From contig JBAXPK010000005.1 of the NCBI GenBank assembly GCA_037132275.1, forward strand, positions 3,122 to 67,121: DNA of 64,000 nucleotides. The letters are read 5' to 3'. Source of the stretch: a bacterium. Its GTDB lineage: Bacteria > Verrucomicrobiota > Kiritimatiellia > CAIKKV01 > CAITUY01. Position numbers and translations under genes: made by a program. Under the pieces are notes generated by a model that saw only the letters and a list, made by a program, of their open reading frames with translations, was not told the origin of the DNA and searched no databases. Below are positions 3,508-54,581 of the stretch, piece by piece. Numbering within the stretch: position 1 is the first letter of the stretch; every line of letters begins with the position of its first letter.

Positions 3508-3553
3508 GGATGACCCTCAAGCGGGACTTGGAGATGAGCGTTCCGGTAAAACT

Positions 3554-10611: not shown

Positions 10612-10640
10612 CGGAGTTGATTTAGTAAAGGAGCACAGGG

Positions 10641-33371: not shown

Positions 33372-33416
33372 ACTGGTGACTTTATCGCAATTCTGTACAA
33401 TGCGCGACCCAATATC

Positions 33417-35222
33417 ATGAGCGCTGTAAAGACCCATAACTATGACGAGAGCAAGATCAAGACGCTCTCCTCGCTGGAGCATATCCGCAAGCGGACCGGG
33501 ATGTACATCGGCCGCATTGGGGATGGCTCCCATTACGACGACGGCCTCTATGTGCTGGTCAAGGAAGTGGTCGATAACGCCATCGATGAGTTTATCATGG
33601 GGTACGGGGATCGTGTGGTGGTGGCCGTGGAGGGAGCGCGGGTGACGGTGCGGGACTTCGGGCGCGGCATCCCGCTCGGCAAGGTCGTGGAATGTGTGTC
33701 ACGCATCAATACCGGTGCCAAGTATAATGACGATGTCTTTCAGTTCAGCGTCGGGCTGAACGGAGTGGGCACCAAGGCGGTGAACGCGCTGTCCTCGGCG
33801 TTCCGGGTGTGCAGTCACCGGGGCGGTGAATTTTCTGCCGCCGAGTTCAAGCGCGGCAAACTGACCCATGAATCCAAGGGGAAAACCGATGAGCCCGACG
33901 GGACGCTAGTCGTGTTTGAGCCGGACGCCGGCATCTTCGGCGCAGCGGCATTTCTTCCTGAACACCTGAAGCGACGGTTTCAACTCTATACGTTTCTCAA
34001 TGCCGGTCTGAAAATCGAGTTTAACGGGGTGGCCTTCCATTCCAAGGATGGGCTTAAGGATCTGGTGGATGACGAGGTCGGCGATGAGGCGCTTTATCCC
34101 ATTCTTCACTATCGTTCCAAGACGCTGGAACTGGCTTTCACGCATACCAACCGGTTCGAGGAAGTGTTCATGTCTTTCGCGAACGGCCAATACACCAGCG
34201 ATGGCGGAACGCACCTGAGCGCCTTTCGGGAAGGCCTGGTCAAGGCGTTTAACGAATATTCCAAGGGCAAGTTTGAGGGGGATGATGTCCGGGAAGGCAT
34301 GGCTGGCGCCATGGCGATCCGATTGAAAGATCCGGTCTTCGAGTCGCAGACGAAGAATAAGCTTGGGAATACCGAAATTCGGAGCGACCTGGTTCAGCAC
34401 GTAAGGGAGGTGGTGGTGGATTTATTGCACCGCGATCCCAGGGCGGCCGAAAAGGCGATCCTGAAGATTGAGGAAACGGTCAAACTGCGCAAGGAGTTGC
34501 AATCCATCAAGAAGATGGCCCGCGAGCGTTCCCGCGCCACCTCCATCAGGGTGCCGCAGTTGAAGGATTGCAAGATTCATTTTGACAAGAGCGATGGAAT
34601 CGGCGAAGGCTCGATGTTGTTCATTACCGAAGGGCAGTCGGCGGCGGGCTCGATCACCAGTTGCCGCGATGTGTCCAATCAGGCCGTCTTTACGCTGCGT
34701 GGTAAACCGCTCAATACCTGGGGGCTCAACCGCGACGTGATGTATAAGAACGAGGAACTCTACAACCTCATGCGCAGCTTGGACGTCGAGGAGTCGGTTG
34801 AGCGGATCCGCTATAACAAGGTGATCCTGGCCACCGATGCCGACGTGGATGGGCTCCATATCCGCAACCTGTTGCTGACCTTCTTCCTCCGGTTCTTCGA
34901 GCCAATCGTGCATGGCGGGCATATCCACATCCTGGAAACACCCTTGTTTCGAGTGCGCAATGCCAAGCGGACGGTGTACTGCTACTCCGAGCAGGAGCGG
35001 GACGCTATGGTAAAGGAGATCGGGCGCGGGGCGGAAGTGACCCGGTTCAAGGGCCTGGGCGAAATCTCGCCGGGCGAATTCAAGCAGTTTATCGGGCCGG
35101 ACATGCGGTTGACCCCGGTCGAGGTGGAGAATCGGCACAGCATTCCCGCCATCCTGAGTTTCTATATGGGGAGGAATACGCCCGAGCGCCGGCAGTACAT
35201 CATGGACAACTTGACCCTCTAG
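33417..35222 (+). CDS. parE: type IIA topoisomerase B subunit (ParE/GyrB-like, 601 aa, short form lacking the GyrB insertion)
   Basis: GHKL ATPase '[12 protein letters not shown]', '[14 protein letters not shown]', TOPRIM '[12 protein letters not shown]' and '[13 protein letters not shown]'. Start set at '[17 protein letters not shown]'. Confidence 0.8.
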
Positions 35223-35247
35223 CCGGATTTCGGCATAATTTCGGAAA

Positions 35248-38200: not shown

Positions 38201-38427
38201 ACTTTGATTTGGTGTTGAGCGACGTCGTGCTATCCGACGGGAACGGCGTGGATCTCGTCCGGTCGCTTAGACGGAAGCACCCCCTGTTGCGTTGCGTGCT
38301 GACCAGCGGCTACGCTGATATTCATGCGCGGCGCCCGGAAATTACGCAGCAGCCATTCCTGGTCAAACCGTTCAGCAGCGCCGATCTCCTTAACACCCTT
38401 GCGGCCGCGTTGGGGCACTCCTCGTGA
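35248..38427 (+). CDS. hybrid sensor histidine kinase/response regulator (multi-TM N-terminal sensor, PAS, HisKA, HATPase_c, C-terminal REC; 1059 aa)
   Basis: About 8 N-terminal TM helices. PAS '[23 protein letters not shown]'. H-box '[14 protein letters not shown]'. G-boxes '[22 protein letters not shown]' and '[11 protein letters not shown]'. REC '[13 protein letters not shown]...[14 protein letters not shown]'. Confidence 0.8.
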
Positions 38428-40478
38428 GCGATCAACCGGAATTGTTTGGCGATGAGGAGTTGGTGACGCCCATCCCTTCAGAGGCGCGGGGTGGGGCCAA
38501 GGATAGCCTTGTGATCCGGGATATCGCCGCCGTGGCCGATGGCCCGCTCAAGGGGCTGGTGAACGGAAACTTCCTGACGTATGCGTCCTATGTTATTCGC
38601 GACCGAGCCATCCCCGATATCGAAGACGGCTTGAAACCGGTTCAGCGCCGTATCCTTCATTCGCTGGGCGAAAACGATGACGGGAAGTTTATCAAGGTGG
38701 CCAACATCGTCGGGTATACCATGCAGTTTCATCCGCACGGGGATGCCTCCATCGCGGACGCCCTGGTCACGCTGGCGAACAAGCAGTACCTGATTGAAGG
38801 ACAGGGGAACTTTGGAAATCTCTTTACCGGCGACCCGGCGGCGGCGTCCCGCTATATCGAATGCCGCCTGACGTCACTGGCCCGGGATGAGATATTCGAT
38901 TCCGATCTGACCGACTATGTTCCTTCCTATGATGGGCGCAAAGAAGAGCCCGTAACGCTGCCTGCCCGCATTCCCCTGCTGTTGCTTCTTGGCGCGGAGG
39001 GCATTGCCGTGGGGTTGTCCACCCGCATTCTGCCGCACAACTTTAACGAATTGCTGGAAGCCCAGGTAGCGATCCTCCAGAAGCGGCCTTGCGAGGTCTA
39101 TCCCGATTTCATACAGGGCGGGATGATGGATGTGACTGGCTACGACAAGGGCAGGGGATATGTCCGGGTGCGGGCTGCCATCGAGATCCGCGACGTCCAG
39201 ACACTGGTGGTGCGTTCAGCCCCCTTCGGCACGACCACCGATTCCCTGATCGCGTCCATTGAGGAGGCGGGACGCAAGGGAAAGGTCAAACTTCGCGGCA
39301 TCAGCGACTACACGGCGGAGGCGGTTGAGGTGGAGGTTCAACTGCAGCCTGACGAGGACGCCGCGCGGGCTGTTGAGACCCTTTACGCCTTTACCCAGTG
39401 CGAGGTGCAGGTGGCGAGCCGAATCATGGTTATTCGCGCCGGTCGACCGACCGAGATGAATGTGGAAGAAGTACTGCAGTATAACACCGATCGGCTTCTG
39501 GAGTTACTCAAGCGCCGGTTGAAGGTTCAGCAGAAGCGGCTGACCGAAGATCTGCATCGCAAGACACTGATCCAGATTTTTGTGCAGAACCGGCTCTATA
39601 CGCCCATCGAGGCCTGTCAATCCCATGACGAAGTCGAGCAGGTGGTGCGAACGGGACTGGGCCCCTTTCTCACGCAACTTCAACGTGATATCACGAATGG
39701 TGACATCGAACTGCTGCTAGGTATTCCCATCCGGCGTATTTCGCTGTTCGATGTGGCGAAGAATCAGCAGGAGATGGAGTCGCTACGGACGGAACTGGCT
39801 GAGTCCCGCGAGAATATGGCCAACTTAACCGGCTATGCCGTACGGTATCTGCGTCAGCTCCAAAAGAAATACGGCCCGAACTTTCCGCGCCGGACGCAAA
39901 TGGCCCGGTTCCAGGCGGTCGGGGTTCGTGAACTGACGGCCTCTGAACTCACCATCAACCAGGATCGCGCCAAGGGATACCTGGGGTATAAGATCGCCGG
40001 AACGACTCTGTTCGAATGTTCCTCGCTCGACAAACTCCTGCTGGTCTGGAAGGACGGCCGGTACAAGGGCGTGCCGCCGCCCGAGAAACTATTCGTGGAC
40101 TCCACCCTGATCCACTGCGCCATCCTGGATCGGGAGCGGGTTCTGACGGTGGTGTATCATGAGGACGGCTTTACGCGCATCAAGCGGTTTTCCGGCGCCC
40201 TGGTGACAAACCGCGAGTACCACTGTATCCCGCGCGGGGCGCATATCCTGTTCTTTTCCGATCAGGATGTGCCAACCCTGTACGTGCAGTATGATGTGCC
40301 CGAGACGGCGGCCATCCGGCAACAGGAATTCGACACCACCACTCTGCCCATAGGCGTGCGGGAGGGGAAAGCCTCCCTGATGTCCTCCAAGAAAATCGCC
40401 AGCATCGGTTCATCAAAGCCCAAAAAATGGGATGACGCCCAGACTGGCCCCAAGGGCGTCTACATGAACTTTGGGTAA
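38424..40478 (+). CDS. parC: type IIA topoisomerase A subunit (ParC/GyrA-like, 684 aa, short C-terminal domain)
   Basis: 'LKPVQRRILHSL', 'GKFIKVANIVGYTMQFHPHGDASIADALVTLA' and catalytic-Tyr region 'RYIECRLT'. GTG start overlapping the stop of the sensor kinase (GTGA). Confidence 0.8.
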   Translation: MSDQPELFGDEELVTPIPSEARGGAKDSLVIRDIAAVADGPLKGLVNGNFLTYASYVIRDRAIPDIEDGLKPVQRRILHSLGENDDGKFIKVANIVGYTMQFHPHGDASIADALVTLANKQYLIEGQGNFGNLFTGDPAAASRYIECRLTSLARDEIFDSDLTDYVPSYDGRKEEPVTLPARIPLLLLLGAEGIAVGLSTRILPHNFNELLEAQVAILQKRPCEVYPDFIQGGMMDVTGYDKGRGYVRVRAAIEIRDVQTLVVRSAPFGTTTDSLIASIEEAGRKGKVKLRGISDYTAEAVEVEVQLQPDEDAARAVETLYAFTQCEVQVASRIMVIRAGRPTEMNVEEVLQYNTDRLLELLKRRLKVQQKRLTEDLHRKTLIQIFVQNRLYTPIEACQSHDEVEQVVRTGLGPFLTQLQRDITNGDIELLLGIPIRRISLFDVAKNQQEMESLRTELAESRENMANLTGYAVRYLRQLQKKYGPNFPRRTQMARFQAVGVRELTASELTINQDRAKGYLGYKIAGTTLFECSSLDKLLLVWKDGRYKGVPPPEKLFVDSTLIHCAILDRERVLTVVYHEDGFTRIKRFSGALVTNREYHCIPRGAHILFFSDQDVPTLYVQYDVPETAAIRQQEFDTTTLPIGVREGKASLMSSKKIASIGSSKPKKWDDAQTGPKGVYMNFG

Positions 40479-42488: not shown

Positions 42489-43565
42489 TCACTTCATCCA
42501 GATAGGCAGGAGCGCCCGCTCGATCCAGTAGGACAATACGGCTGTGATCGGGATAGTGAGCACCCATGCCCAGACGATGCGGCCCACAATACCCCATTTT
42601 ACGGCGCTGAGGCGTTTGGTGGCTCCGACCCCCATAATGGAGGTTGAGATGACGTGGGTGGTGGAGAGCGGGATGCCCCAATGGGTGGCTAGGGAAATCA
42701 CGGCGGCCGCCGTCGTTTGTGCCGCAAATCCGTGAATGGGCTGCATCCGCACAATCTTGTGTCCCATAGTTCGTATGATCCGCCAGCCGCCCGCAGCGGT
42801 TCCGGCCGCCATGGTCAGGGCGCATGTCACCTTGATCCAGGTGGCCACGGTAAACTCGGGGGTTCTCAGGAACTCCAGCCAAGGTGGTAGGGCCCCGAAG
42901 GAAGTGCTTTTGGTTGTGGCGGTGAAGAGGATGAGGGCGATGATCCCCATGGTCTTCTGGGCATCGTTTGTGCCATGACTGAAACTGATCCACGCGGCGC
43001 TCACCAGTTGGAGTTTGGAAAACACCTTGTTGATCAGCAGGGGGCGCATCTTGTGAAGCAGCACGACCAGCAGCGCCATCAGCAGGGCGCCAAAAACAAA
43101 CCCGACGGCGGGCGAGATAAACATAGGCATGATCACCTTGGGCCAGAGGCCTTCCATGTGCCCCGAGGCGGTGTTGGGAACGGCCCACCGGATGACGTGC
43201 CAGTTATCATGGGAGGACGCCAGGGTGGCGCCGCAGAGTCCGCCAATCAGGGCATGACTCGAACTGGATGGCAAACATAACCACCAGGTCAGCAGGTTCC
43301 ACACGATGGCGCCCAGCAGCGCGGCCAGAATGGTGTCAATGCCCACAAACTGGGTATCCACCAGTCCCTGGCCGATGGTCTTGGCCACAGCCACCCCAGC
43401 CATGGCGCCCAGCAGGTTGAAGCAGGTGGCCATGGCCACCGCCTGGCGCGGCGTTAACACTTTGGTTGAAACGGTGGTGGCGATAGAGTTGGCGGTGTCG
43501 TGGAAGCCGTTGATATACTCGAAGGCTAACGCGATCAGCAGCACTGTCAGGATAAGGATCAGCAT
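42489..43565 (-). CDS. pitA: inorganic phosphate transporter, PiT family
   Basis: PHO4 signature repeats 'GFHDTANSIATTV' and 'SFSHGTNDAQKTMGII'. Confidence 0.85.
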   Translation of the reverse strand: MLILILTVLLIALAFEYINGFHDTANSIATTVSTKVLTPRQAVAMATCFNLLGAMAGVAVAKTIGQGLVDTQFVGIDTILAALLGAIVWNLLTWWLCLPSSSSHALIGGLCGATLASSHDNWHVIRWAVPNTASGHMEGLWPKVIMPMFISPAVGFVFGALLMALLVVLLHKMRPLLINKVFSKLQLVSAAWISFSHGTNDAQKTMGIIALILFTATTKSTSFGALPPWLEFLRTPEFTVATWIKVTCALTMAAGTAAGGWRIIRTMGHKIVRMQPIHGFAAQTTAAAVISLATHWGIPLSTTHVISTSIMGVGATKRLSAVKWGIVGRIVWAWVLTIPITAVLSYWIERALLPIWMK

Positions 43566-43596
43566 GCGTGTATTTTTCGGGGTGCGGGTTTAAGCG

Positions 43597-44247
43597 TCAG
43601 GAATACTTGAGCACGACCTGGAAAATGATGTTGCCGACATCCCGGCAACGGTCGATGATTTTCTCCAGGGTTTCGTGGAGGTCAAGGATGATAATCACCT
43701 TCAAGGGATCATGTTTTCCACTATAGAGATCCTTGACAAGATCAAGCATCAGTTTGTCGGCCTCGCCCTCGAGATAATGGAGGCGGATATTGTATTCCTT
43801 CATTTCTTCGAGATGCGCCCGGGTTCGCAGTTTGGTCACCATTTGGGACACGGTCTCGGTGGTTTGCTCGAGAATGGTCGCCTGATCCAGGAAATTGGCG
43901 TCCTTCAGCATATCGGTGCAGAGCATGTACTTTTCGCTGAATTTCTCGGCGGTTTTCGGGATTTTGTAGAGTGCCAGGGAGAGGGACTCGATGTCCTCGC
44001 GCTCCAGCGGGGTCACGAAAGTTTTGCAAAGTTCTTCCGTGATCTGCTCCGTGATCCGCTTATCTTTCCGGCGGGAATGAATGAAATCGCCCATGGAGGT
44101 GATCCCCTCCGGCTTTTTTAGCAAGGTCAGCAGAAGCTGAACACTGGCTTTGGCCTCATCGGCACTGGCTTCAAGGAGGTCGAAAAACTTGTCGTCATAC
44201 CCGAGTAGTCGTCTGATAGCAGTTATCATGGGAAGAATTAATGCCAT
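43597..44247 (-). CDS. DUF47/TIGR00153-family protein (PhoU-like Pit accessory protein)
   Basis: 216-aa helical protein directly upstream of pit (31-nt gap), the canonical DUF47-PiT pairing. Confidence 0.7.
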   Translation of the reverse strand: MALILPMITAIRRLLGYDDKFFDLLEASADEAKASVQLLLTLLKKPEGITSMGDFIHSRRKDKRITEQITEELCKTFVTPLEREDIESLSLALYKIPKTAEKFSEKYMLCTDMLKDANFLDQATILEQTTETVSQMVTKLRTRAHLEEMKEYNIRLHYLEGEADKLMLDLVKDLYSGKHDPLKVIIILDLHETLEKIIDRCRDVGNIIFQVVLKYS

Positions 44248-44344
44248 AGAGCGTCAAAATAATCACGTCAATTCCGTGAATGAAAACGAAATTCTCATCA
44301 AACGCTCATTTTCCCCTTACAAAGATTGGTGATTATTCTGGAGT
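44248..44344. promoter_or_regulatory. AT-rich divergent promoter region (DUF47-pit <-> PHP-GT4) containing 11-bp-spaced direct repeats 'CTCATCAaacgCTCATTT' (44294-44311) and 'CGTCAA..CGTCAA'; weak Pho-box-like candidate
   Basis: Read directly. Two 7-nt half-sites separated by 4 nt mimic Pho-box geometry (CTGTCAT-N4-CTGTCAT), 34-51 nt upstream of the ATG at 44345. Sequence similarity to the consensus is partial. Confidence 0.3.
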
Positions 44345-46750
44345 ATGAAGCCAACATCATCAGGTTACACAAGCTCCATGAAGGCGGATCTTCATGTGCA
44401 CAGTAAGTATTCCGACCGGCCGACCGAATGGTTTCTGCGGCGGATCGGTGCGCCGGAATGTTTTGCCGAGCCGGAGGATGTGTATCGTGTCTGTCGGGAA
44501 AAGGGGATGGATTACGTTACCATATCGGATCACAACTGTATTGACGGAGCTCTTGAAATCGCCCATCTTCCGGGTACCTTTATCTCGGCGGAGTTGACCA
44601 CGTATTTCCCCGAGGATGGGTGCAAAATCCATTGCCTGGTACAGGATATCACCGAGCGGCAGTTTTCGGACTTACAGATCATCCGGAAGAATATCTACGA
44701 CCTGCGGAAATATCTGGCCGATGAAGCCATCCTCCATGTTATTGCGCATCCGTTGTTTCGGGTGAACGACGTGCTGACCGTCGAGCATGTTGAAAAACTG
44801 CTTTTGCTATTCGAGCGCTTTGAAGCCATCAACGGGTCACGCCACCCCAGGGCAGGGGATTTGACTGTAGCGCTGTTTTCCCAGCTTACCGAGGAGCAGA
44901 TTTGGGCCATGTCTGACCGGCATGGAATCCAGCCCTATGGCAAGACTACGTGGGTGAAACGTTTCACGGGAGGCAGCGATGATCACAGTGGTCTATACGC
45001 CGCCAGCGCTTATACGGTCACCCCCCCTGCCGATTCGGTGCAGGAATTCCTGGCGCATTTGCGTGCGGGGCGTCATGAACCCCGTGGAACTCCGGGCACC
45101 AGTTTACGCCTGGCACATAGTCTCTATCACATCGCTTACCAATATTATCGCAGCCGCCTTTTGAACCATGGGGCGGGATCCTCGGTACTTGGCGAATTAT
45201 TTAAGCGCCTGTTGAGCGGTTACGAAGAGCCGGAAAAAACGTCCGGGCCGGTCCGCGCCTGGGCGGAACGGGTCATCAAGAAATATCGTGTCCGAAAACT
45301 GAGTCCTGGGGAGCGGTTGATGGTGGAGTCATTTTCGAAATTGCGTGGGAATTCGGCTCCGGGTGGAGGATTGGTAGGTCGGCGTGTGGGGCCTGACGTC
45401 GAAAACTTTGCCACGGCCAGCCGGATCAGCCACGAACTCGGGTATGCGTTCCTGCAACAATTCCTCGGTCATGTGGAGGAAGGACGCCTGGTTGACGGAT
45501 TCCAGTCGCTGGCGTCGATGGGCACCGTGATGCTGGGGATCGCCCCCTATTTAACGGCGTTCGGGGTTCAGCATAAGGACGAGCGATTTCTGCAGGAAGC
45601 CGCCACCCGTCTCGGGGGAGGTCTCGTCTGTCCCGAGCGCAGTCATCGTCGCGCGTGGGTCACGGATACCTTCAGCGATGTGAACGGGGTGTCCCACACC
45701 ATCCGGATGCTCACTGAAAAAGCCCGTGGCCGCGGCTGGCCCATCACCGTCATGACAGCCATGGAATCCCCGCCCGACACCGGGACGGAAGCGGTCAATT
45801 TTCCTCCTTTGGGAACGTTTTCCCTGCCGGAGTATGATTCCCAAAAAATGGTATTCCCTCCCTTTCTGGATGTGATCGAAGCCTTGGAGCGGGGAAACTA
45901 TTGCGAGGTGATCATCTCGACTCCCGGCCCCATGGGGTTGACGGCGTTGATGGCCGCTCGACTTTTAGGCATCAAGTCTGCGGGTATCTACCACACGGAT
46001 TTTCCGAAATATGTCAAGTGCCTCACTCAGGATGAGTCGCTTGAGCAACTGGCCTGGAGATACATGGTGTGGTTTTATGGACAGATGGATCGGATTCATG
46101 TCCCGAGCGAGTATTACAGGAATCTTCTGGCCGAAAATGGCTTTGACAAGGCCCGGCTTAAAGTGTTGCCGAGAGGTGTGGATCTGACCCGTTTTAACCC
46201 CGGGAAACGCGATGGGAATTTCTGGAAGCGATATGGCCTCAATGGGAACCTCAAATTGCTGTATGTGGGGCGCGTCTCGAGAGAGAAGAACATCAAGACC
46301 CTGATCGACGCCTTCCAGATTGCGCGGACCACTACGCCCAATCTGGATTTGATCGTGGTTGGGGATGGCCCTGAACTCGCGACGTTCCGCCATCAACACA
46401 AGGACAGCAATATTTGTTTCACGGGTGTTCTTCACGGGGAGGAGCTGGCCACCGCGTACGCGAGCGCAGACCTGTTTGTGTTTCCGAGCGCGAGCGATAC
46501 CTTCGGCAACGTGGTGCTGGAAGCCCATGCGTCCGGTTTGCCGGCCATCGTTTCAACGCAGGGTGGTCCCGCCGAGATTGTTGCGCGAAATGGATCGGGC
46601 CTTGCCGTGGATGTGAGAACCCCGGCTCCCCTATGTGCCGGTATCCGGGATCTCGTTTGGGACGGCAATCGACGGGCTGATATGGGGCGAAGCGCTTTGA
46701 AAACGGCGCTTGAGATGAGTTGGGACAAGGCTCTCGATCAATTATTCTGA
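44345..46750 (+). CDS. fusion protein: N-terminal PHP (polymerase/histidinol-phosphatase family) phosphoesterase domain + C-terminal GT4 glycosyltransferase (801 aa)
   Basis: PHP motifs 'ADLHVHSKYSD', 'ISDHN', 'HPLF' and 'GGSDDHSG' in the first ~250 aa. GT4/GT-B motifs 'LLYVGRVSREKNIKTLIDAF', 'LIVVGDGPE' and 'FVFPSASDTFGNVVLEAHASGLPAIVS' in the last ~330 aa. Confidence 0.6.
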   Translation: MKPTSSGYTSSMKADLHVHSKYSDRPTEWFLRRIGAPECFAEPEDVYRVCREKGMDYVTISDHNCIDGALEIAHLPGTFISAELTTYFPEDGCKIHCLVQDITERQFSDLQIIRKNIYDLRKYLADEAILHVIAHPLFRVNDVLTVEHVEKLLLLFERFEAINGSRHPRAGDLTVALFSQLTEEQIWAMSDRHGIQPYGKTTWVKRFTGGSDDHSGLYAASAYTVTPPADSVQEFLAHLRAGRHEPRGTPGTSLRLAHSLYHIAYQYYRSRLLNHGAGSSVLGELFKRLLSGYEEPEKTSGPVRAWAERVIKKYRVRKLSPGERLMVESFSKLRGNSAPGGGLVGRRVGPDVENFATASRISHELGYAFLQQFLGHVEEGRLVDGFQSLASMGTVMLGIAPYLTAFGVQHKDERFLQEAATRLGGGLVCPERSHRRAWVTDTFSDVNGVSHTIRMLTEKARGRGWPITVMTAMESPPDTGTEAVNFPPLGTFSLPEYDSQKMVFPPFLDVIEALERGNYCEVIISTPGPMGLTALMAARLLGIKSAGIYHTDFPKYVKCLTQDESLEQLAWRYMVWFYGQMDRIHVPSEYYRNLLAENGFDKARLKVLPRGVDLTRFNPGKRDGNFWKRYGLNGNLKLLYVGRVSREKNIKTLIDAFQIARTTTPNLDLIVVGDGPELATFRHQHKDSNICFTGVLHGEELATAYASADLFVFPSASDTFGNVVLEAHASGLPAIVSTQGGPAEIVARNGSGLAVDVRTPAPLCAGIRDLVWDGNRRADMGRSALKTALEMSWDKALDQLF

Positions 46751-46751
46751 C

Positions 46752-48470
46752 ATGGATCTCTTCATGATTGACGGGATCGGGCCCTTCTTTCTAGGGCATC
46801 CCAAGCGAACTGTAAACTGGTCCAAGATTCCCTTTTCCGCCCTGGAACGCAATGGCCATGTCAAAGCGGACGTGTTCAGGGAGATCCGGGAAGCCTTCAC
46901 CCGTTTTGCAGGCACGGCGGCCTCCCTTGGGTTCAATGCCATCTCGCTCGATGACCTGGCGCACTTGACCGACTCTTTCGCCTACCCGCCGCCCCTCCGG
47001 GACAGGATCGCCGCCTATCGGTATGAATTCGCGGCCCTTTTTGAAATTGCCCGGGCAGCGGGACTCCAGGTCTACATGACCACCGATATCTCGTTCTTTA
47101 ACCGGGAGTTGGATGAGCGACTGGGACGGGATGACAGCAAGATCATTCGGTTTCTGGGCGATGCTGTCGATGCCTTATTCCGGGATTTCCCCTCAGTCCA
47201 GGGGATTATCGCCCGTTTCGGGGAATCCGACGGACTGGATGTCCATGGCGATTTTCTGAGTCGGCAGATCTTGAGGACTCCCCGTCAGGCCCGCTGTTAT
47301 GTGGAGGCGCTATTGGCGGTGTGTGAAACCCGTCGCCGCACCCTGATCATGCGCACCTGGAGTCTGGGGGCCTATCGCATCGGAGATTTGATGTGGAACA
47401 GGAAAACCTACGAGGCGGTATTCACAGGGCTTGAACATCCCCGGTTGATTCTTTCCCTGAAATACGGGGAGACGGATTTTTTCAAATACGTTCCCCTCAA
47501 TCGCCATTTTCACGATGATTCCCGACACAACAAAATGATCGAACTTCAGGCCCGCCGCGAATACGAGGGGGGCGGGGAATACCCTTCTTTCATCGGCTGG
47601 GATTATGAGCGGTACGAAAAGGAACTGGCTTCCTGTCGCAATGTGGTGGGGGCTTGGATCTGGTGCCAGACGGGAGGATGGACGACATCGCGCCGGATTA
47701 CCTTTGTGAAGGATTCATCCCTCTGGAATGAGATCAATGTGGCGGTGACCATCAGGGTGTTCAAGGAGCACCAGGGGGTGGAGTCGGCGGTGCGGCAGTA
47801 TTGCGCCATTCATATGCCCGGTGTCCCTGCCGTGTCCCTGCTCGAATTACTCCGCCTTTCCTCTGAAGTGGTGTCCGAGTTACTATATGTGGATGACTAC
47901 GCCCGTTGTGCGGTCTATTTCAGGCGATTGAGGTTGCCTCCCCTCATGCATGTCTTGTGGGACGCCGTGTTCATCACTGATACGATGCGCATCTTTTTGC
48001 GTCACTTTGTGCGGGATTTGGAAGGGAAAATAAGTCAGGGGTACGAGGCTCTCCGCAAAATTCAGAGGATGATCGCGCTGGCGGAGGAGATGGGACTCCC
48101 TGCGGAGGGATTGAAAGCCCAGTATGCAGTCTATGAGGTTCTTGCGGTGGCGCGCGAATACTTCTTCAGGCCCGCCAATCCGGCGGTTGAAAGCCGGTTG
48201 CGCGGGCTCATCCGACGAATCCATCAATCCCCGGCGGAGAACCATTATGTGTTTGTCGTACGGTTCAACAGATCCTGGATGGGCGCCGGACTGATCCGCT
48301 TTGTTTTAAGGCATTTGCTTCGGCACCGACGGGCCTATCGTCTTGCAGATCGGCTTGTGCTGCTGCGGGTGCTGGCTTGGGTGGGGTGGGGACTCAAGTT
48401 TGTCCCGGCACACCGGCTTCCCCGGGTGGCGGTTTCGCAAGGGATGGGTCTTCGTCATTTCCTGAAATAG
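46752..48470 (+). CDS. conserved hypothetical protein (572 aa), function unknown; cytoplasmic
   Basis: Starts 1 nt after the PHP-GT4 stop (tight coupling). No recognisable family motif and no TM segment. Arg/Trp-rich C-terminus. Confidence 0.45.
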   Translation: MDLFMIDGIGPFFLGHPKRTVNWSKIPFSALERNGHVKADVFREIREAFTRFAGTAASLGFNAISLDDLAHLTDSFAYPPPLRDRIAAYRYEFAALFEIARAAGLQVYMTTDISFFNRELDERLGRDDSKIIRFLGDAVDALFRDFPSVQGIIARFGESDGLDVHGDFLSRQILRTPRQARCYVEALLAVCETRRRTLIMRTWSLGAYRIGDLMWNRKTYEAVFTGLEHPRLILSLKYGETDFFKYVPLNRHFHDDSRHNKMIELQARREYEGGGEYPSFIGWDYERYEKELASCRNVVGAWIWCQTGGWTTSRRITFVKDSSLWNEINVAVTIRVFKEHQGVESAVRQYCAIHMPGVPAVSLLELLRLSSEVVSELLYVDDYARCAVYFRRLRLPPLMHVLWDAVFITDTMRIFLRHFVRDLEGKISQGYEALRKIQRMIALAEEMGLPAEGLKAQYAVYEVLAVAREYFFRPANPAVESRLRGLIRRIHQSPAENHYVFVVRFNRSWMGAGLIRFVLRHLLRHRRAYRLADRLVLLRVLAWVGWGLKFVPAHRLPRVAVSQGMGLRHFLK

Positions 48471-48502
48471 AGGCGGTCACATTATTCTAACCAACCGCTC
48501 GC

Positions 48503-50371
48503 ATGGTTTTAACAGAAGCCGTCTATGATGACGGCATTATGCAAACTACTCATGCCCTTGACTGTCAGGTTATTCCGTCTGCCGCGTGGCCGTTGCCCGG
48601 CAGGGGAATAGCTCCAATGGCCAACCGTATTCTGGGAGGTGTTTTCCAGTTGGACAGGTTGGCCGGCCTGTATGAGGAAATCCGGGAGGACAATACGTCC
48701 CAGTCCTTTGTTGATCGGGCATTGGCCTGCCTTGACGTAAGCCACAACATTGTCCATGGCGGCCTTGAGGCCATTCCCCGGGAAGGCCCCCTTCTGGTGA
48801 TAGCCAATCACCCCTTTGGCGGAGTTGAGGGCCTGGTGTTGCTGAGCCTTCTGGCGGCCGTTCGACCGGATGTCAAAGTAATGGCCAACCAGCTGCTATC
48901 GGCCATTCCAGAGCTTCACAAGCATATGATCCTGGTGGATCCTTTTGGTGGTTCCAGGGCGACGGGAAATAATCTAGCCCCTGTACGGCAGAGTTTGCGA
49001 TGGCTCAAAAACGGCGGCGCGCTGGGCGTGTTTCCCTCGGGCGAAGTGGCGCATTTCGATTTGGCCCGAAGGCGGATTTGCGAATCCGAGTGGTCTCTGA
49101 CTATTGCCCGTCTGATGCGGCATAGCGGGGCGGCCGTGCTTCCCGTCTTTTTCGACGGGGCGAATGGCCCGCTCTTCCAGATGGCAGGCCTCATTCATCC
49201 CCGGTTGCGGACGGCAATGCTCATCCGGGAGATGGTCAACAAGACGGGCCACTCGCTGAAGGTGAGTATTGGCAGGGTTCTTCCGCATGCCAAATTGGAA
49301 ACTATTCAGGATGATGCGGAACTTACCCGTTACCTGAGGATGCGTGTCCAATTGCTCGGGCAGGTCGGGGTGGTGACCCGTATCCGGAAGACTGGGCGGG
49401 CATGGGGTGGGCGCACGGCGCCCGTGGCCTCTGCCGGAGCGGCCGGAGATCTAGCGCGGGAAGTGGCCTGGCTTTCGCCGGAACAGAAATTAGCGGAAAC
49501 GAGCGGTTACCAGGTGTATATCGCCGGTGCCAACCAGATTCCCGGCGTGCTCCGCGAAATCGCGCGTTTACGCGAGGTGACGTTCAGGGCTGTCGGGGAG
49601 GGAACAGGGCACGCCCAAGATATGGATGTATTCGACAGGTTCTACCAGCACTTGTTTGTATGGAACGAAAATAAATCAGAAGTGGTTGGGGCGTATCGCC
49701 TGGGTCTGACAGATAAAATTCTTTCCCAATTCGGAGTGGATGGGCTCTATACCAGCACCCTTTTCAAGTATAAATGGAATACGATCGAAGCGTTGAGTCC
49801 CGCGATTGAAATCGGGCGATCCTTTGTCCGCCAGGAATACCAACGCAAACATCTTCCCCTCCTTCTGCTTTGGAAGGGGATTGGCGCGTATGTGGCCAGG
49901 AATCCGAAATACCGGAACCTGTTCGGAACGGTCAGCATGAGTAATCAGTATAACGAGACCTCGCGTCAATTGGTGGCCCATTTCTTCGAGCAGGAGAAGC
50001 TCAACCAACCCATCCAATTGTCGGTGCGTCCGAGAAATCCATTAAGAATGAAAGGGACGCCTGTGGGGGACGCGAGGGGGCCTGTCTGTCGTATCCCCGG
50101 TTTGGAAGCCCTCTCCGAGATGGTAAGCGAAATCGAGGAGGATGGAAAAGGAATCCCCGTGCTGATGCGGCAGTATATGAAACTGGGGGGGCGGGTATTG
50201 GCCTGCAATGTGGATCCCAAATTTAACATGGCGCTCGATGCGCTTCTGGTGGTGGATTTGACCCGCACCGATCCCCGGTTTCTTGAACTCTACATGGGGA
50301 CGATGGCGGCAGGGTATCTCCGCCATCATGGGGTGGGGGCCAGCGAGGAAAGGCAGGCCCAATGTGCCTGA
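48503..50371 (+). CDS. OlsF-like bifunctional acyltransferase: N-terminal lysophospholipid-acyltransferase (PlsC/LPLAT) domain + C-terminal OlsB-like GNAT (Acetyltransf_5) N-acyltransferase domain; candidate aminolipid (ornithine/lysine/glycine lipid) synthase
   Basis: LPLAT motifs 'LVIANHPFGGVEG' (block I-like) and 'GVFPSGEV' (FPEGT-like block III). C-terminal ~250 aa ('YRLGLTDKIL...YTSTLFKY...IEIGRSFVRQEYQRK..LLLLWKGIGAYV') resembles OlsB/hemolysin-like GNATs. The combination equals the OlsF architecture. Confidence 0.5.
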   Translation: MVLTEAVYDDGIMQTTHALDCQVIPSAAWPLPGRGIAPMANRILGGVFQLDRLAGLYEEIREDNTSQSFVDRALACLDVSHNIVHGGLEAIPREGPLLVIANHPFGGVEGLVLLSLLAAVRPDVKVMANQLLSAIPELHKHMILVDPFGGSRATGNNLAPVRQSLRWLKNGGALGVFPSGEVAHFDLARRRICESEWSLTIARLMRHSGAAVLPVFFDGANGPLFQMAGLIHPRLRTAMLIREMVNKTGHSLKVSIGRVLPHAKLETIQDDAELTRYLRMRVQLLGQVGVVTRIRKTGRAWGGRTAPVASAGAAGDLAREVAWLSPEQKLAETSGYQVYIAGANQIPGVLREIARLREVTFRAVGEGTGHAQDMDVFDRFYQHLFVWNENKSEVVGAYRLGLTDKILSQFGVDGLYTSTLFKYKWNTIEALSPAIEIGRSFVRQEYQRKHLPLLLLWKGIGAYVARNPKYRNLFGTVSMSNQYNETSRQLVAHFFEQEKLNQPIQLSVRPRNPLRMKGTPVGDARGPVCRIPGLEALSEMVSEIEEDGKGIPVLMRQYMKLGGRVLACNVDPKFNMALDALLVVDLTRTDPRFLELYMGTMAAGYLRHHGVGASEERQAQCA

Positions 50372-50414
50372 GTTGCGTCACAGGCGAAATCGTGATCTAC
50401 GCAATCTGACAGGC

Positions 50415-50906
50415 TTGCTGGCAACGCTCGGTGTGTTGGCGACGGTTTTCGCGAAAGTTGAAATTCAGATTGAAGGAGCTGCAGGGTGGGCGGCCAACCT
50501 GCCCACATGGCGGCTTGAACACCATTGGGTGCTCGATCTTATCTGGGGTGGACGTCCTTTGACCGGGTATCACGTTTGGGTTTTTCTGTTCATGGCCCTG
50601 GTTTTTCACCTGATGTTTTTTATTCATGGCCGCTATGCCATTCGTCTTGAACTCCGGGTGCTGGGGAGTTTGGCGGTATTCTGGATATTGGAAGATTTTC
50701 TCTGGTTTGTGATGAATCCCGCCTACGGTTTGTCAAGATTCAACCCGCAGTGCATTCCTTGGCACCACCATTGGATGTTGGGTATTCCTGTGGATTATGT
50801 CGTGTATCTGGCCGTGGGGATCCTGATGCTCTGGCTTTCCATCCGGCGGCGCAAGCTGGCGTCACGCCCTGTAGCGGTTCGTGATGCCATTCCGGGGAAA
50901 TTATGA
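50415..50906 (+). CDS. small polytopic membrane protein (about 4 TM, unknown function), translationally coupled to the downstream GT28
   Basis: The track ORF (50283) overlaps the upstream gene by 89 nt, and the first in-frame ATG would delete TM1. Start placed tentatively at in-frame TTG 50415 (alternatives GTG 50433, TTG 50436). Hydrophobic, W/H-rich helices. Stop overlaps the next ATG (ATGA). Confidence 0.35.
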   Translation: MLATLGVLATVFAKVEIQIEGAAGWAANLPTWRLEHHWVLDLIWGGRPLTGYHVWVFLFMALVFHLMFFIHGRYAIRLELRVLGSLAVFWILEDFLWFVMNPAYGLSRFNPQCIPWHHHWMLGIPVDYVVYLAVGILMLWLSIRRRKLASRPVAVRDAIPGKL

Positions 50907-52024
50907 AGATCCTGATTCTCCATGCCTCGGCCGGGGCCGGGCATCGGCGTGCGGCGGAGGCCCTCGCGGCAGCCTGTCTACAGGAAGGGATTCAGCCTAT
51001 CGTGCATGACATTTTGGAATTCACCCCACCGCTCTTTCGGACCACTTATGCTGCGGGATATTTGAACATGGTGCGATCCGCCCCTGAGCTTTGGGGCTAC
51101 CTCTATTCGCTGACGGATCGGAAAAGCCAGACACCTTGGCACCGGCGAATCCGAACCACATTCAATAAGCTAAACACCAAGTCATTTGAACGCTTCCGCC
51201 GGGAACTCCAGGCGGATGCGGTGATCTGTACCCATTTTCTCCCCTTGGAAATACTGGGGCGGCGTCGTCCGAAGGACGCAGGTAAGGTGCCTCTGTTTGG
51301 GGTGGTCACGGATTTTGCGGCCCATTCATTGTGGTCATGCCCAAACGTGGACGGATATTTTACTGGATGCGAAGAGGCACGTCGGCAGTTAATTCGGATG
51401 GGCCAGCCGCCTGGACGTGCCTGGGTGACAGGGATTCCGATTTCCCCCGAGTTCGTCCCCCCGGCCGATGTCGTTAATTTGCGTATTCGCATGGGCTTGG
51501 CTCCCGATCTCCCGGTCATCCTAATATTGTGCGGCGGATTCGGTGTCGGAGCGATTGTGGATGTATTGGGTGCTTTTGCCAAAGAGCCGCTTCAGGCACA
51601 ACTGGTGGTGGTGACCGGCAATAATGAAGCGTTACGGGATCGGGCGGCCCGGAAGGCCAGGGAGTTGACGATGCCAGTGATGTTGCATGGATTCGTCTCG
51701 AATATTCATGAATTGATCGGTGTGGCCGATGTGGTCATCAGCAAGCCGGGCGGTTTGACTTCGGCGGAGGTTCTGGTGATGGGGTGCCCGCTTGTGATCA
51801 TGGATCCCATTCCCGGACAGGAGCAGAGGAATGGGGAATATCTGCTTGAAAACGGGGCGGCGGTTCGATTGGTGGATCCCTGGGATGCCCCGTTCAAGGT
51901 TTGGCCGATTCTGGAAAATCATGAACGCCGCCGCTCTATAAGTGCGGCCGCCCTACGTCTGGCCAAGCCGGATGCCGCCCGGGTGATTGTGCGGGAGGTG
52001 GCGAGGCAGGTTGGCAGAGTCTAA
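50903..52024 (+). CDS. MGDG-synthase-like GT28 glycosyltransferase (diacylglycerol glycosyltransferase; UgtP/MGD-type)
   Basis: N-terminal 'KILILHASAGAGHRRAAEAL' (MGDG_synth) and C-terminal GT28 'VISKPGGLTSAEVLVMGCPLVIM.PIPGQEQRN'. Confidence 0.7.
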   Translation: MKILILHASAGAGHRRAAEALAAACLQEGIQPIVHDILEFTPPLFRTTYAAGYLNMVRSAPELWGYLYSLTDRKSQTPWHRRIRTTFNKLNTKSFERFRRELQADAVICTHFLPLEILGRRRPKDAGKVPLFGVVTDFAAHSLWSCPNVDGYFTGCEEARRQLIRMGQPPGRAWVTGIPISPEFVPPADVVNLRIRMGLAPDLPVILILCGGFGVGAIVDVLGAFAKEPLQAQLVVVTGNNEALRDRAARKARELTMPVMLHGFVSNIHELIGVADVVISKPGGLTSAEVLVMGCPLVIMDPIPGQEQRNGEYLLENGAAVRLVDPWDAPFKVWPILENHERRRSISAAALRLAKPDAARVIVREVARQVGRV

Positions 52025-52104
52025 GGATTTACGCCTGGTTCGTCTCACCAATTTCTAACAATAAATCCGTTTCCTTTTCGCTGACGGTTGCTTACGATGA
52101 GGCC

Positions 52105-52791
52105 ATGGTCAAGAAACATATCGTGTTCGTTGAAGATGAGCCGGATATTGCCGATTTGCTTTCCTATAACCTGACCCGGGATGGGTATGAGGTTACGGGG
52201 CTTTCCAATGGGGAACAGGCGATGCAAATCATTCCCCGGAAGAAGCCCCATCTTGTTTTGCTGGATCTGATGTTACCCGGTATGAGCGGCTTGGAAATTT
52301 GCCGCTTGCTCAAGGCCAAGCCTGAAACGGCAACGATCCCCATTATCATGGTCACCGCCAGGGGCGAGGAAACGGATGTGGTGGTCGGATTGGAGATGGG
52401 GGCGGACGATTATGTTGCCAAGCCTTTCAGCATGAAGGTGCTCCTGGCCCGGATTCACAGCGTGCTTCGGCGGCGCGAAAAGGGACCCGCCAAGACAGAT
52501 GATGTGCTTAAAGTTCATGACATCATGATCAATCCCGGGCGTCACGAGGTCGTGTGCGGGAAAGCCTCGATCGAGTTGACGGCCTCGGAATTCCGGCTGC
52601 TCCATTTCCTGGCGCAGCGGCCGGGATGGGTGTTTACCCGCGAACAGATTGTAGATGGCGTGAAGGGGGAGGATTATGCGGTGACCGATCGGGCGGTGGA
52701 TGTTCAGGTGGTTTCCCTGCGGCGCAAGCTCGGGAAACGCGGGGATTATGTCGAGACGGTGCGCGGGGTGGGGTATCGCTTCAAGGAGTGA
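52105..52791 (+). CDS. phoB: OmpR/PhoB-family response regulator (REC + winged-helix)
   Basis: REC 'IVFVEDEPDIADLL...LDLMLPGMSGLE...ARGEETD...GADDYVAKPFS' and wHTH '...VGYRF'. Assignment as PhoB is by context (PiT/DUF47 upstream, PhoR-like kinase downstream). Confidence 0.7.
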   Translation: MVKKHIVFVEDEPDIADLLSYNLTRDGYEVTGLSNGEQAMQIIPRKKPHLVLLDLMLPGMSGLEICRLLKAKPETATIPIIMVTARGEETDVVVGLEMGADDYVAKPFSMKVLLARIHSVLRRREKGPAKTDDVLKVHDIMINPGRHEVVCGKASIELTASEFRLLHFLAQRPGWVFTREQIVDGVKGEDYAVTDRAVDVQVVSLRRKLGKRGDYVETVRGVGYRFKE

Positions 52792-54581
52792 TGATGCGGT
52801 CTAAACGTTTATTCTGGCGAATCTATGCTTATTTTTTGATGGCGACCCTCGGTGCCTTGGTGGCGACCGCCTGGTATGCCGACCATTTATTGTACACCTT
52901 TCATCAAAATCAGGTTACCGCTGATCTTCTGGCCCGCGCCCAGATCATCGCGCGGGAACTGACGCCTCCCTTGGATCATGGCGATGATCCGGTTGCCTTG
53001 GATAAAATGTTCAAGGAGTTGGGGCGGCTGACGATGTCTCGTATCACGATCATCCTGCCCGATGGCCGGGTTATCGCGGATTCTTCGGAGAATCCGGCGA
53101 CGATGGAAAATCATCGTAACCGGCCTGAAGTCGATGCCGCGCTGGCCGGGAGGACGGGGCAATCCTTGAGGTATAGCGATACGCTTCGGCGGCGGTTGAT
53201 GTATCTGGCCATTCCGGTATGGAAAGACGGGTCAGTGGCTGGCGTGGTACGCGTCTCGCTTCCGCTGGCGGTTGTGGATGAAACCATCAGAACCCTGTAT
53301 CGCGACATTGCCCTTGGCGGCCTTGTGGTGGCCGGGGTGTTTGCCGTGTTGGCTCTGGCCATTTCCCGCCGGATCACCCGGCCGTTGGAATATATGCGGC
53401 AGGTTTCCGAGCAATTTGCACAGGGGGAGTTGGCGGCCCGTATCCCTGTGCCTGATACGGACGAAATGGCGTCTCTGGCGCGCACGATGAACCAGATGGC
53501 GGCGCAGCTTCATGAAAGGGTGCGTACCGTGGCCCTTCAGCACAACGAGCAGCGCGCCGTTCTGGCCAACATGGTCGAGGGGGTTCTGGCGGTGGATGTG
53601 GCGGAACATATCCTGCACATCAATCCCGCCGCCTGCCGGTTGCTGGGCCTCAAGCCGGACGAGGGCCGGGGGCGCCATATCCTCGAAATAGTGCGCAATA
53701 TAGACCTGCAGGAGTTCCTGGTTGAAACCTTGAGCGCCGCCGGTCCCACGGAGCGGGAAATTGTGCTTCGCGGCGATGCCGAACTGGTTATCCAACTGCA
53801 TGGTGCCGTCCTGAAAAATGCGGATGGCGCCAACATTGGGGCGCTGGTGGTGATGAACGATATCACCCGCATGAAGCGGTTGGAATCGATGCGCCGTGAT
53901 TTTGTCGCCAACGTTTCGCATGAACTCAAGACCCCGATCACAACCTTGAAGGGCTGTGTCGAGACCCTGTCCGAGGGGGCGGTGCATAACCCTGAGGAAT
54001 CAAGGCATTTTCTGGAGATGATGGGCCGCCATGTGCATCGCCTGGAAGCCATGGTCGAGGATCTCCTGGTTCTATCGCGTCTGGAGTATGAGTCGGAGCG
54101 CGGCGACATTGTGTTGGAACCCGGAGCCATTCAAGATGTTTTGGCGCGTGCCGTTCAGGCTTTTGCGAAGCGGGCGGAGGCCCGGGGGATTCTGCTGGTC
54201 ATGGATTGCCCGGATTCCTTGAGGGCCTTGATCAATGCGCCGCTCCTGGAGCAGGCGGTTGGAAATCTGTTGGATAACGCGATCAAGTACAGTTCAGAAG
54301 AGACGCGTATCAACGTGACAGCGGTTCAGGCGGATACCTGTATTGAGATTCGCGTAGCCGACCAGGGACCGGGTATCGAGAAGAAACACTGGGGCCGAAT
54401 TTTTGAGCGATTCTACCGCGTGGATCAGGCCCGCAGTCGCGCCATGGGTGGCACCGGCCTCGGACTGGCGATCGTAAAACATATTGCCATTGCCCATCAC
54501 GGTAGCGTTTCCTTGGAAAGTGTTCCCGGGCAGGGCAGTACATTCATGCTGCGCGTGCCGACCCACGCCGCTCCGTCATGA
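52791..54581 (+). CDS. phoR: PhoR-like sensor histidine kinase (2 TM, HAMP, PAS, HisKA, HATPase_c)
   Basis: Start at 'MMRSKRLFWRIYAYFLMATLGALVA' overlapping the phoB stop by 1 nt. H-box 'FVANVSHELKTPITTLKG'. N/G-boxes 'LLDNAIKYS', 'DQGPGIEKKHWGRIFERFYRVD' and 'GTGLGLAIVKHIA'. Confidence 0.75.
   Translation: MMRSKRLFWRIYAYFLMATLGALVATAWYADHLLYTFHQNQVTADLLARAQIIARELTPPLDHGDDPVALDKMFKELGRLTMSRITIILPDGRVIADSSENPATMENHRNRPEVDAALAGRTGQSLRYSDTLRRRLMYLAIPVWKDGSVAGVVRVSLPLAVVDETIRTLYRDIALGGLVVAGVFAVLALAISRRITRPLEYMRQVSEQFAQGELAARIPVPDTDEMASLARTMNQMAAQLHERVRTVALQHNEQRAVLANMVEGVLAVDVAEHILHINPAACRLLGLKPDEGRGRHILEIVRNIDLQEFLVETLSAAGPTEREIVLRGDAELVIQLHGAVLKNADGANIGALVVMNDITRMKRLESMRRDFVANVSHELKTPITTLKGCVETLSEGAVHNPEESRHFLEMMGRHVHRLEAMVEDLLVLSRLEYESERGDIVLEPGAIQDVLARAVQAFAKRAEARGILLVMDCPDSLRALINAPLLEQAVGNLLDNAIKYSSEETRINVTAVQADTCIEIRVADQGPGIEKKHWGRIFERFYRVDQARSRAMGGTGLGLAIVKHIAIAHHGSVSLESVPGQGSTFMLRVPTHAAPS

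Follow-up and report, generated by a model that had tools for sequence, protein, structure and literature searches.

The 64-kb stretch of DNA analysed here (the window) comes from an uncultured bacterium that homologues of its proteins place in the Planctomycetes–Verrucomicrobia–Chlamydiae (PVC) superphylum. Between positions 42489 and 54581 it carries a cluster of phosphate-uptake, lipid-related and regulatory genes, which is probably a chromosomal lipid-replacement programme of the phosphate (Pho) regulon, laid out as three units each led by an operator. The cluster comprises the following features:

42489–43565, minus strand: pit, a PiT-family inorganic phosphate transporter gene (Pfam PHO4, 321 bits, full length; partial NCBIfam PitA match)
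43597–44247, minus strand: PhoU_div/DUF47 Pit-accessory gene (Pfam PF01865, 33.9 bits against a cutoff of 24.4)
44292–44309, plus strand: Pho-box-like operator P1, TTCTCATCAAACGCTCAT (position weight matrix (PWM) score 19.6)
44345–46750, plus strand: gene for PHP::GT4, 801 aa, whose C-terminal 360 aa are a glycosyltransferase family 4 (GT4) domain by Pfam and whose PHP domain was found by fold
46752–48470, plus strand: unk572, encoding a 572-aa protein and beginning 1 nt past the PHP::GT4 stop
48485–48502, plus strand: Pho-box-like operator P2, TTCTAACCAACCGCTCGC (PWM 17.2)
48503–50371, plus strand: open reading frame (ORF) of the olsF-like gene, conserved start 48539 (NCBIfam OlsF and two Pfam acyltransferase domains)
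50283–50906, plus strand: ORF of a predicted four-transmembrane (4-TM) protein with four hydrophobic segments; 50364–50906 from the NCBI start
50903–52024, plus strand: GT28, a UgtP/MGD1-like glycosyltransferase gene (Pfam MGDG_synth and Glyco_tran_28_C)
52042–52059, plus strand: Pho-box-like operator P3, GTCTCACCAATTTCTAAC (PWM 17.9)
52105–52791, plus strand: phoB-type OmpR-family response regulator gene (best NCBIfam match TIGR02154 PhoB)
52791–54581, plus strand: phoR-type sensor kinase gene (Pfam domains)

The ORF map and Pfam and NCBIfam profile searches bear out this gene order, which a first-pass annotation of the sequence had described, and the ATGA coupling that it saw between the 4-TM and GT28 genes is real (overlap at 50903–50906). 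We moved the olsF start to the ATG at 48539, which is common to the window and its close relative L001; the ATG at 48503 is not kept in L001. The 4-TM gene starts in the NCBI annotation at GTG 50364, giving 180 aa and an 8-nt overlap with the olsF stop, and phoR starts at ATG 52791, overlapping the phoB stop (TGATG). With these starts, the plus-strand genes form three tightly packed units: PHP::GT4–unk572, olsF–4TM–GT28 and phoB–phoR. On the minus strand, DUF47 and pit form one operon (same strand, 31-nt gap, both Pfam matches above cutoff) with the arrangement of the PiT and DUF47 families, a PHO4-family permease preceded by a PhoU_div/DUF47 gene; 97 bp of divergent intergenic DNA separate DUF47 from PHP::GT4. 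A mobile island was rejected: housekeeping genes (topoisomerase IV subunits, thiL, serS and tilS) flank the region and its GC content shows no step, so that it is core chromosome.

Control by phosphate, which the first-pass annotation had inferred from gene content alone, is now supported by three independent computed lines. First, a Pho-box-like repeat precedes PHP::GT4, olsF and phoB. The 18-bp direct-repeat site TTCTMAY-N4-NGCTMAY, with a period of 11 bp, occurs in three copies, all on the plus, coding strand. P1 (halves TTCTCAT-caaa-CGCTCAT) is separated from the PHP::GT4 ATG downstream by around 36 nt and from the opposite-strand DUF47 start by 45 nt; P2 lies 37 nt before the corrected olsF ATG, the same geometry as at PHP::GT4; and P3 (GTCTCAC-caat-TTCTAAC) lies around 46 nt before phoB, predicting autoregulation. 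A scan of the whole window allowing one mismatch returned only these three sites, at three promoters, and they also rank top in a PWM scan, which found P2 even though that site was outside the training set. A motif match at 29477, between two minus-strand RND efflux genes and with a low PWM score, was taken as chance. The first-pass annotation had nominated the promoter regions 44248–44344 and 52025–52104 for a Pho-box search, and the direct repeat is present in both.

In the window and in L001, a −10-like element, TWACAR, follows the box after around 6–7 nt, so that direct repeats with an 11-bp period stand just upstream of a −10 region, as in a Pho box. The E. coli Pho-box consensus is CTGTCATAAAACTGTCAT, and P1 agrees with it at 13 of the 18 positions. 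A scan for sigma-70 promoters and terminators performed no better on the window than on shuffled sequence and returned no match in the three promoter regions. We infer that P1, P2 and P3 are operators bound by PhoB.

Second, the pattern derived from the window lands upstream of orthologous genes elsewhere. We retrieved 80 genomic loci encoding unk572 homologues, 1.28 Mb in all. Fixed from the window alone before the relatives were examined, the pattern gave 10 matches, 3 of them upstream of PHP::GT4 or unk572 against around 0.07 expected; 2 more precede a PHP::GT4-linked gene and a TonB2 cluster. A refined pattern, TTCTMAYNNNNNNCTMAY, gave 7 matches, all on the same strand as a gene and 24–73 nt upstream of it, the targets being PHP::GT4 (5), olsF (in L001) and a porin gene after olsF (in L002). 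The counterparts of P1 and P2 in L001 are TTCTCATCAAGGGCTCAC, at the same distance from its gene as in the window, and TTCTAACCGTCCCCTCAT, and both the box-to-ATG geometry and the TWACAR element are identical in the two genomes. In L002 the block CAATTTCTAACA.AAATCC is kept before phoB, and in the cultured Pontiella desulfatans F1 (GCA_900890425.1) TTCTAACGATCCGCCAAT stands 34 nt upstream of PHP::GT4 (L086 15661–18057, box at 15610).

An unbiased test of 6-mer enrichment upstream of PHP::GT4 and unk572 did not cleanly recover the Pho box (TAACAG and CTAACA were enriched), because the result was dominated by CACCACATCGTCACTTGCATCCCGC, an element common to about a dozen closely related verrucomicrobial loci including Prosthecobacter. 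This element, near-identical from locus to locus and unlike the Pho box, stands 20–45 nt before the unk572 ORF start in L037, L042, L045, L046, L049, L050 and L059, loci with no GT4 close to unk572.

Third, the PHP::GT4–unk572 pair adjoins canonical phoBR–pstSCAB–phoU genes in other phyla. In the acidobacterial locus L076 the order is phoB-phoR-pstS-pstC-pstA-pstB-phoU-PHP::GT4-unk572; in L068, from Verrucomicrobiota, a GT4 gene on the opposite strand is followed by unk572-phoB-phoR-porin-pstS-pstC-pstA. All Pst and PhoU proteins of these two loci score above the NCBIfam cutoffs. The window regulator is 75% identical to that of L002 and 59% and 47% identical to those of L068 and L076, which sit within the pst clusters; the recognition helix is conserved among the regulators compared, and the window shares it with the PVC regulators. 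The pstS promoter of L076 carries three TCTTCAY repeats with an 11–12-bp period, and its PHP::GT4 promoter carries three similar repeats. The window kinase consists of a transmembrane (TM) segment, a Cache-like domain, a second TM segment and HAMP, PAS, HisKA and HATPase domains.

Across the 80 loci, unk572 has one recurrent partner, a GT4 of some kind (35 loci), either as the PHP::GT4 fusion (22 loci) or standing alone. The pair is neighbouring in PVC bacteria, Acidobacteriota and Fibrobacterota, with PHP::GT4 first, in reversed order, divergent or a few genes apart. Linkage to a regulator and to pit, which the first-pass annotation had emphasised, holds in the window; among relatives the phoBR part varies, with a PhoB-type regulator adjoining in 11 of the 80 loci in at least four arrangements, and the pit part is specific to this genome, L001 (unk572 80% identical) having no pit/DUF47 neighbour. 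OlsF and GT28 are add-ons limited to the closest relatives, L001 and L002. Lipid genes nevertheless stand near the PHP::GT4/unk572 family in three independent contexts: olsF (window, L001 and L002), an LPG_synthase_TM gene (Pontiella), and phosphatidylserine decarboxylase with an LGT-family gene beside a paralogue.

PHP::GT4 consists of a PHP domain (residues ~10–260), a helical linker (260–430) and a GT4 domain (~440–801). The N-terminal 430 aa of this 801-aa protein gave no match in Pfam, in PDB sequences or in profile searches, and the fold search alone worked. The AlphaFold2 model of the region has a predicted local distance difference test score (pLDDT) above 90 for most of residues 10–260, and Foldseek matched the domain to 7ug9 (3.5e-7), 2anu, 3o0f and 2yb1, the matched proteins being the PHP domain of RNase AM, TM0559, BAD_1165 and Cv1693. 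The metal-ligand residues D62, H63, E83, H96, H135, D212, D213 and H214 do not vary among 24 homologues, in which H17 and H19 reach at least 90% conservation. The domain thus has the distorted TIM barrel and the ligand series HxH ... E ... H ... H ... DxH that define the PHP superfamily; an earlier PHP assignment of the fusion is borne out by fold, though Pfam detects no PHP. Judged from these residues, it should be an active phosphoesterase. The best curated match of the GT4 domain is a GlcNAc-phosphatidylglycerol synthase model (133 bits), followed by MshA, PimB, BshA and diacylglycerol glucosyltransferases.

Several further observations concern this family. In paralogues of ~610 aa, the PHP domain and helical linker are followed by no more than the N-terminal half of a GT4 fold, and no unk572 adjoins them (L087 7001–8815, L088 7001–8881 and L089 7001–8869; P0139, P0143, P0169 and P0170). 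We rejected truncated gene calls as their origin: they recur on long contigs, and so represent a real and widespread paralogous architecture. Downstream of the gene for the ~610-aa protein in L088 come genes for a complete GT4, an unknown protein of 789 aa and the phosphatidylserine decarboxylase, and the LGT-family gene. In Pontiella, a conserved 225-aa protein with no Pfam family comes right after PHP::GT4, and a DUF2334 gene and the LPG_synthase_TM (flippase-like) gene lie near it (L086 18081–18758 and 20743–21716; L028 6129–6809; L054 6437–8254). Together with the best curated GT4 match, these neighbours hint at an amino-sugar lipid. Pontiella genomes also encode, between unk572 and PHP::GT4, a protein of ~523 aa with a choice-of-anchor I domain (L086 13601–15172; L031 12091–13662).

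The partner protein, unk572, has no Pfam or NCBIfam match, and a PDB sequence search gave chance nuclear receptor matches only. It has at least 1,380 homologues, with relatives in Verrucomicrobiota, Victivallales, Kiritimatiellia and Pontiella, and an NCBI metagenome-assembled-genome entry matches it along all of that entry's 568 residues. The model (pLDDT 80) shows a TIM barrel joined to a helical domain; the nearest structures by Foldseek are α-glucuronidases of glycoside hydrolase family 67 (GH67; 1gql, 2.8e-12), followed by GH20, GH138 and GH84. The likeness to GH67 is one of fold (TM-score ~0.5, identity 12–14%); no Pfam match or PDB sequence relative places the protein in GH67 by sequence. 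Unk572 has no signal peptide or TM segment and is predicted to be cytoplasmic; PHP::GT4 likewise has no predicted TM segment. The last 67 residues of unk572 have a net charge of +13, and this basic, hydrophobic tail suggests membrane binding.

The lipid assignments of OlsF and GT28 in the first-pass annotation stand at family level on Pfam, NCBIfam and PDB matches. The OlsF-like protein aligns to positions 36–568 of the 570-position NCBIfam OlsF profile and has the two domains of OlsF, an N-terminal lyso-lipid O-acyltransferase (Pfam Acyltransf_2/Acyltransferase, residues 85–280) fused to a C-terminal N-acyltransferase (Acetyltransf_5, 356–457); its score of 400.8 bits is below the equivalog cutoff of 620, hence the name OlsF-like. 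GT28 has the domains of the diacylglycerol glycosyltransferases (monogalactosyldiacylglycerol (MGDG) synthase and UgtP), MGDG_synth at 95 bits and Glyco_tran_28_C at 33.8 bits, and is similar in sequence to a processive diacylglycerol β-glucosyltransferase (9wde, 6e-39) and Arabidopsis MGD1 (4wyi, 3.5e-31); its NCBIfam match to diglucosyl-diacylglycerol synthase (212.7 bits) is under the cutoff of 500.

The 4-TM protein belongs to no Pfam family and is ~160–180 aa long, with four hydrophobic segments. Its family comprises 558 representative clusters and at least 2,329 proteins from several lineages, most matches listed being 55–77% identical. An MGDG_synth GT28 directly adjoins the 4-TM gene in the window (50364–52024) and in three further loci, one deltaproteobacterial, one from Riflebacteria and a third (L081 3871–5504, L083 3730–5498 and L084 5001–6682); the order varies and a 4-nt overlap is frequent. 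No 4-TM homologue was found among the 80 unk572 loci. As judged by this gene adjacency, the 4-TM protein is a conserved partner of GT28, and probably serves bacterial diacylglycerol glycosyltransferases as a subunit or membrane partner that has gone unrecognised.

These elements can be assembled into a mechanism. When phosphate is scarce, PhoR would phosphorylate PhoB, which would activate its own operon through P3 (autoinduction of phoBR), olsF–4TM–GT28 through P2 and PHP::GT4–unk572 through P1. OlsF would then make an ornithine-type or other acyloxyacyl aminolipid, and GT28, with its small 4-TM membrane partner, a glycosyl-diacylglycerol. The PHP domain may free diacylglycerol from a phospholipid or phosphatidate, analogous to what PlcP does for Agt, for the fused GT4 to glycosylate, and the GH67-like unk572 may trim or remodel the sugar head group on the cytoplasmic side of the membrane. 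Since P1 lies inside the divergent DUF47–pit promoter region, 45 nt from the DUF47 start, it might additionally repress the low-affinity DUF47–pit transporter; in S. meliloti, orfA(DUF47)–pit is reported to be repressed by PhoB. The first-pass annotation had proposed a complete aminolipid plus glycolipid programme: its Pho control is supported, its completeness is not. Within this programme we advance more tentatively a specific role for the central pair, in which PHP::GT4 would be a fused lipid phosphoesterase–glycosyltransferase that replaces PlcP–Agt non-orthologously and its GH67-like partner would be a new lipid-remodelling enzyme family of PVC bacteria, Acidobacteriota and Fibrobacterota, both under the lineage-specific Pho box TTCTMAY-N4-NGCTMAY.

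Several observations weigh against a Pho-regulated lipid-replacement programme. The source is a metagenome-assembled genome, the PWM was built by hand and in part from sites that it then scores, and in Prosthecobacter no GT4 adjoins unk572, which is preceded by a different element. In addition, L001 has neither the 4-TM gene nor an adjacent phoBR, and 20 of 100 shuffled windows reached three motif matches, so that the bare count is not significant. Constitutive envelope-biosynthesis genes could lie between pit and phoBR by accident, beside a chance motif, as neither of these neighbours is conserved in L001 and three matches per 64 kb are not unusual. With the count uninformative, it is the placement that matters: each of the three matches stands on the coding strand, with a fixed spacing to the operon start that follows, the same motif recurs at orthologous promoters in distant taxa, and the phoBR linkage recurs in different arrangements, which together make an accident very improbable. 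The two-component system might instead be a generic OmpR-family pair that senses, for example, envelope or cell-wall stress (WalRK- or MtrAB-like), a signal that the lipid genes would follow. PhoB, PhoR, OlsF and GT28 all score under their NCBIfam equivalog cutoffs: the top match of the regulator, TIGR02154 PhoB, reaches 257 bits against 296, and those of the kinase are PnpS (370 against 400), WalK and phoR_proteo (299 against 334). The WalK, MtrA and YycF models are nearly as good, and the extracytoplasmic Cache-like domain is absent from E. coli PhoR. The PhoB and PnpS/PhoR models nevertheless rank first, homologous pairs (regulators 47–59% identical) lie directly upstream of pst genes in L076 and L068 next to the same targets, the same type of repeat precedes pstS in L076, and P1 agrees with the E. 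coli consensus at 13 of 18 positions. We regard a generic sensor as improbable, if somewhat less so than an accident.

A more serious challenge concerns the central pair, and accepts the Pho control: PHP::GT4 and unk572 could be a synthase, phosphatase and hydrolase trio for a soluble compound or an envelope precursor and make no membrane glycolipid. The GT4 would add sugar to a soluble acceptor that bears a phosphate, or to a precursor of an envelope glycan; the PHP domain would dephosphorylate the product and the GH67-like enzyme would degrade it, with precedents in sucrose-phosphate synthase and phosphatase, MshA and its phosphatase, and the glucosylglycerate GpgS/GpgP/GgH cycle. The GT4 domain can be assigned to the GT4 family and to no specific activity within it, its close relatives include MshA, which uses a phosphorylated acceptor, and the nearest PHP folds belong to enzymes for soluble nucleotides or small phosphoesters; no PHP enzyme is known to us to be a phospholipase C or a phosphatidate phosphatase. 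The lack of predicted TM segments in both proteins also fits, and a GH-like partner suits the turnover of a soluble glycoside. Making a hydrolase-like protein alongside a glycolipid synthase would seem wasteful if that protein had no other role. Against a soluble product stand the lipid genes that adjoin the pair in three independent contexts, the best curated GT4 match, which is a lipid glycosyltransferase and is joined by diacylglycerol glucosyltransferases, and the strongly basic, hydrophobic tail of unk572, which suggests membrane binding; we are, moreover, aware of nothing that would call for such a solute when phosphate is scarce. We consider this explanation unlikely, and favour a lipid role for PHP::GT4 and unk572.

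Box-like sites also precede some neighbouring genes. The gene after olsF in L002 (8745–9242), behind the strong box TTCTAACTTGGCGCTCAT, encodes an outer-membrane porin of the Porin_5 family, and another such gene lies between phoR and pstS in L068 (6350–7507), behind CCCTCAC-aatt-TCCTAAC; this protein is a candidate phosphate-starvation porin of PVC bacteria. A Pontiella-type TonB2 cluster (TonB-dependent receptor, DUF3450, ExbB, ExbB, ExbD, TonB and a TPR protein; L086 823–9903) lies directly upstream of (phoB-)unk572 and is also found in L017, L021, L030, L031, L032 and L073. Box-like sites precede its receptor and DUF3450 genes, and the cluster may therefore share the regulon. Elsewhere in the window, a 1,059-aa hybrid histidine kinase/receiver (PAS, HisKA, HATPase and receiver domains) is encoded between topoisomerase IV/gyrase-like subunit genes (33360–40478), the stop of its gene overlapping the start of the downstream subunit gene. 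A carbohydrate-active run at 931–13016 (PfkB kinase, GH29 fucosidase, GH2, GH115, GH63/MGH1-like hydrolase and GH94 phosphorylase) fits the usual gene content of polysaccharide-degrading PVC bacteria and has no connection with the lipid cluster.

Swapping phospholipids for phosphorus-free lipids is a major microbial response to phosphate scarcity, and it shapes the lipid biomarkers of oceans, lakes and sediments. Genetic knowledge of the swap comes nearly all from Proteobacteria, with a few Bacteroidota and one Desulfovibrio. The PVC phyla (Verrucomicrobiota, Kiritimatiellota, Lentisphaerota and Planctomycetota) and Acidobacteriota are abundant polysaccharide degraders for which we found no functional data on the swap. 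Our literature searches found no functional evidence for PVC OlsF homologues and no work joining a PHP domain with glycolipids or phosphate limitation, their top-ranked results did not pair a Pho box with the name of a PVC phylum, and the description of Pontiella agarivorans gives no polar-lipid data. The candidate Pho-box consensus could be used to predict Pho regulons in PVC bacteria and Acidobacteriota, and PHP::GT4 is a candidate for a new route from phospholipid to glycolipid. Two widespread uncharacterised families, the GH67-like proteins (at least 1,380) and the 4-TM proteins (at least 2,300), gain a testable physiological context, for which cultured carriers exist in Pontiella desulfatans (PHP::GT4/unk572 pair) and Prosthecobacter fluviatilis (unk572).

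Pho control of olsF, Pho control of glycolipid synthesis and remodelling by PlcP–Agt are established (PMC12971839, PMC5193443, PMC4796936), the PlcP–Agt operon being known from Alphaproteobacteria, SAR11 and Pseudomonas (PMC4796936, PMC8528852). The predicted PHP::GT4 system resembles PlcP–Agt in combining a Pho-controlled, metal-dependent phosphoesterase with a GT4, so that glycosyl-diacylglycerols would replace phospholipids. It differs in that PlcP, a metallophosphoesterase of the calcineurin type, has a gene of its own, whereas here a PHP domain is fused to the GT4, and in its obligate GH67-like partner, which PlcP–Agt systems do not have. Pfam and the fold, which is PHP, reveal no PlcP-type metallophosphoesterase domain in PHP::GT4, which is thus not a member of PlcP–Agt but may work alike.

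OlsF ornithine and lysine lipid synthases are known from Serratia proteamaculans, Flavobacterium johnsoniae, Vibrio cholerae (VC0489) and Desulfovibrio alaskensis (Dde_3661) (PMC12971839, PMC5193443). The window protein shares their N-terminal O-acyltransferase and C-terminal N-acyltransferase over the whole profile, and has a Pho box upstream as in Serratia, but with 401 bits it stays short of the 620 that NCBIfam sets for equivalogs. The D. alaskensis G20 genes olsF, agt and phoR lie scattered over its genome; in the window, by contrast, olsF, a glycosyltransferase gene and phoR are clustered. GT28 resembles UgtP/YpfP and plant MGD1 in its MGDG_synth N-terminal and GT28 C-terminal domains, with strong matches to solved UgtP and MGD1 structures, but is paired with a small 4-TM protein rather than an LtaA-type flippase. 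Unk572 shares with GH67 (1gql, 1l8n) and with GH20 and GH84 a (β/α)8 barrel followed by a helical domain, with conserved acidic residues near the predicted strand ends; unlike GH67 enzymes it has no signal peptide and has a basic C-terminal tail, and its setting is a cytoplasmic Pho-type operon rather than xylan degradation.

The regulatory layer resembles PhoBR of E. coli and Sinorhizobium: two 7-bp repeats with an 11-bp period upstream of the −10 element, predicted autoregulation of phoBR, and DUF47–pit beside a box. The half-site is TTCTMAY/GCTMAY here against CTGTCAT in the E. coli paradigm, the recognition helix has Q and V where that of E. coli PhoB has H and R, and the kinase has a Bacillus PhoR/WalK-like extracytoplasmic domain, unlike the E. 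coli paradigm. The lipid-swap programme is thus itself of a known kind, and its new elements are the PHP::GT4 fusion, the GH67-like and 4-TM partners and the operator consensus.

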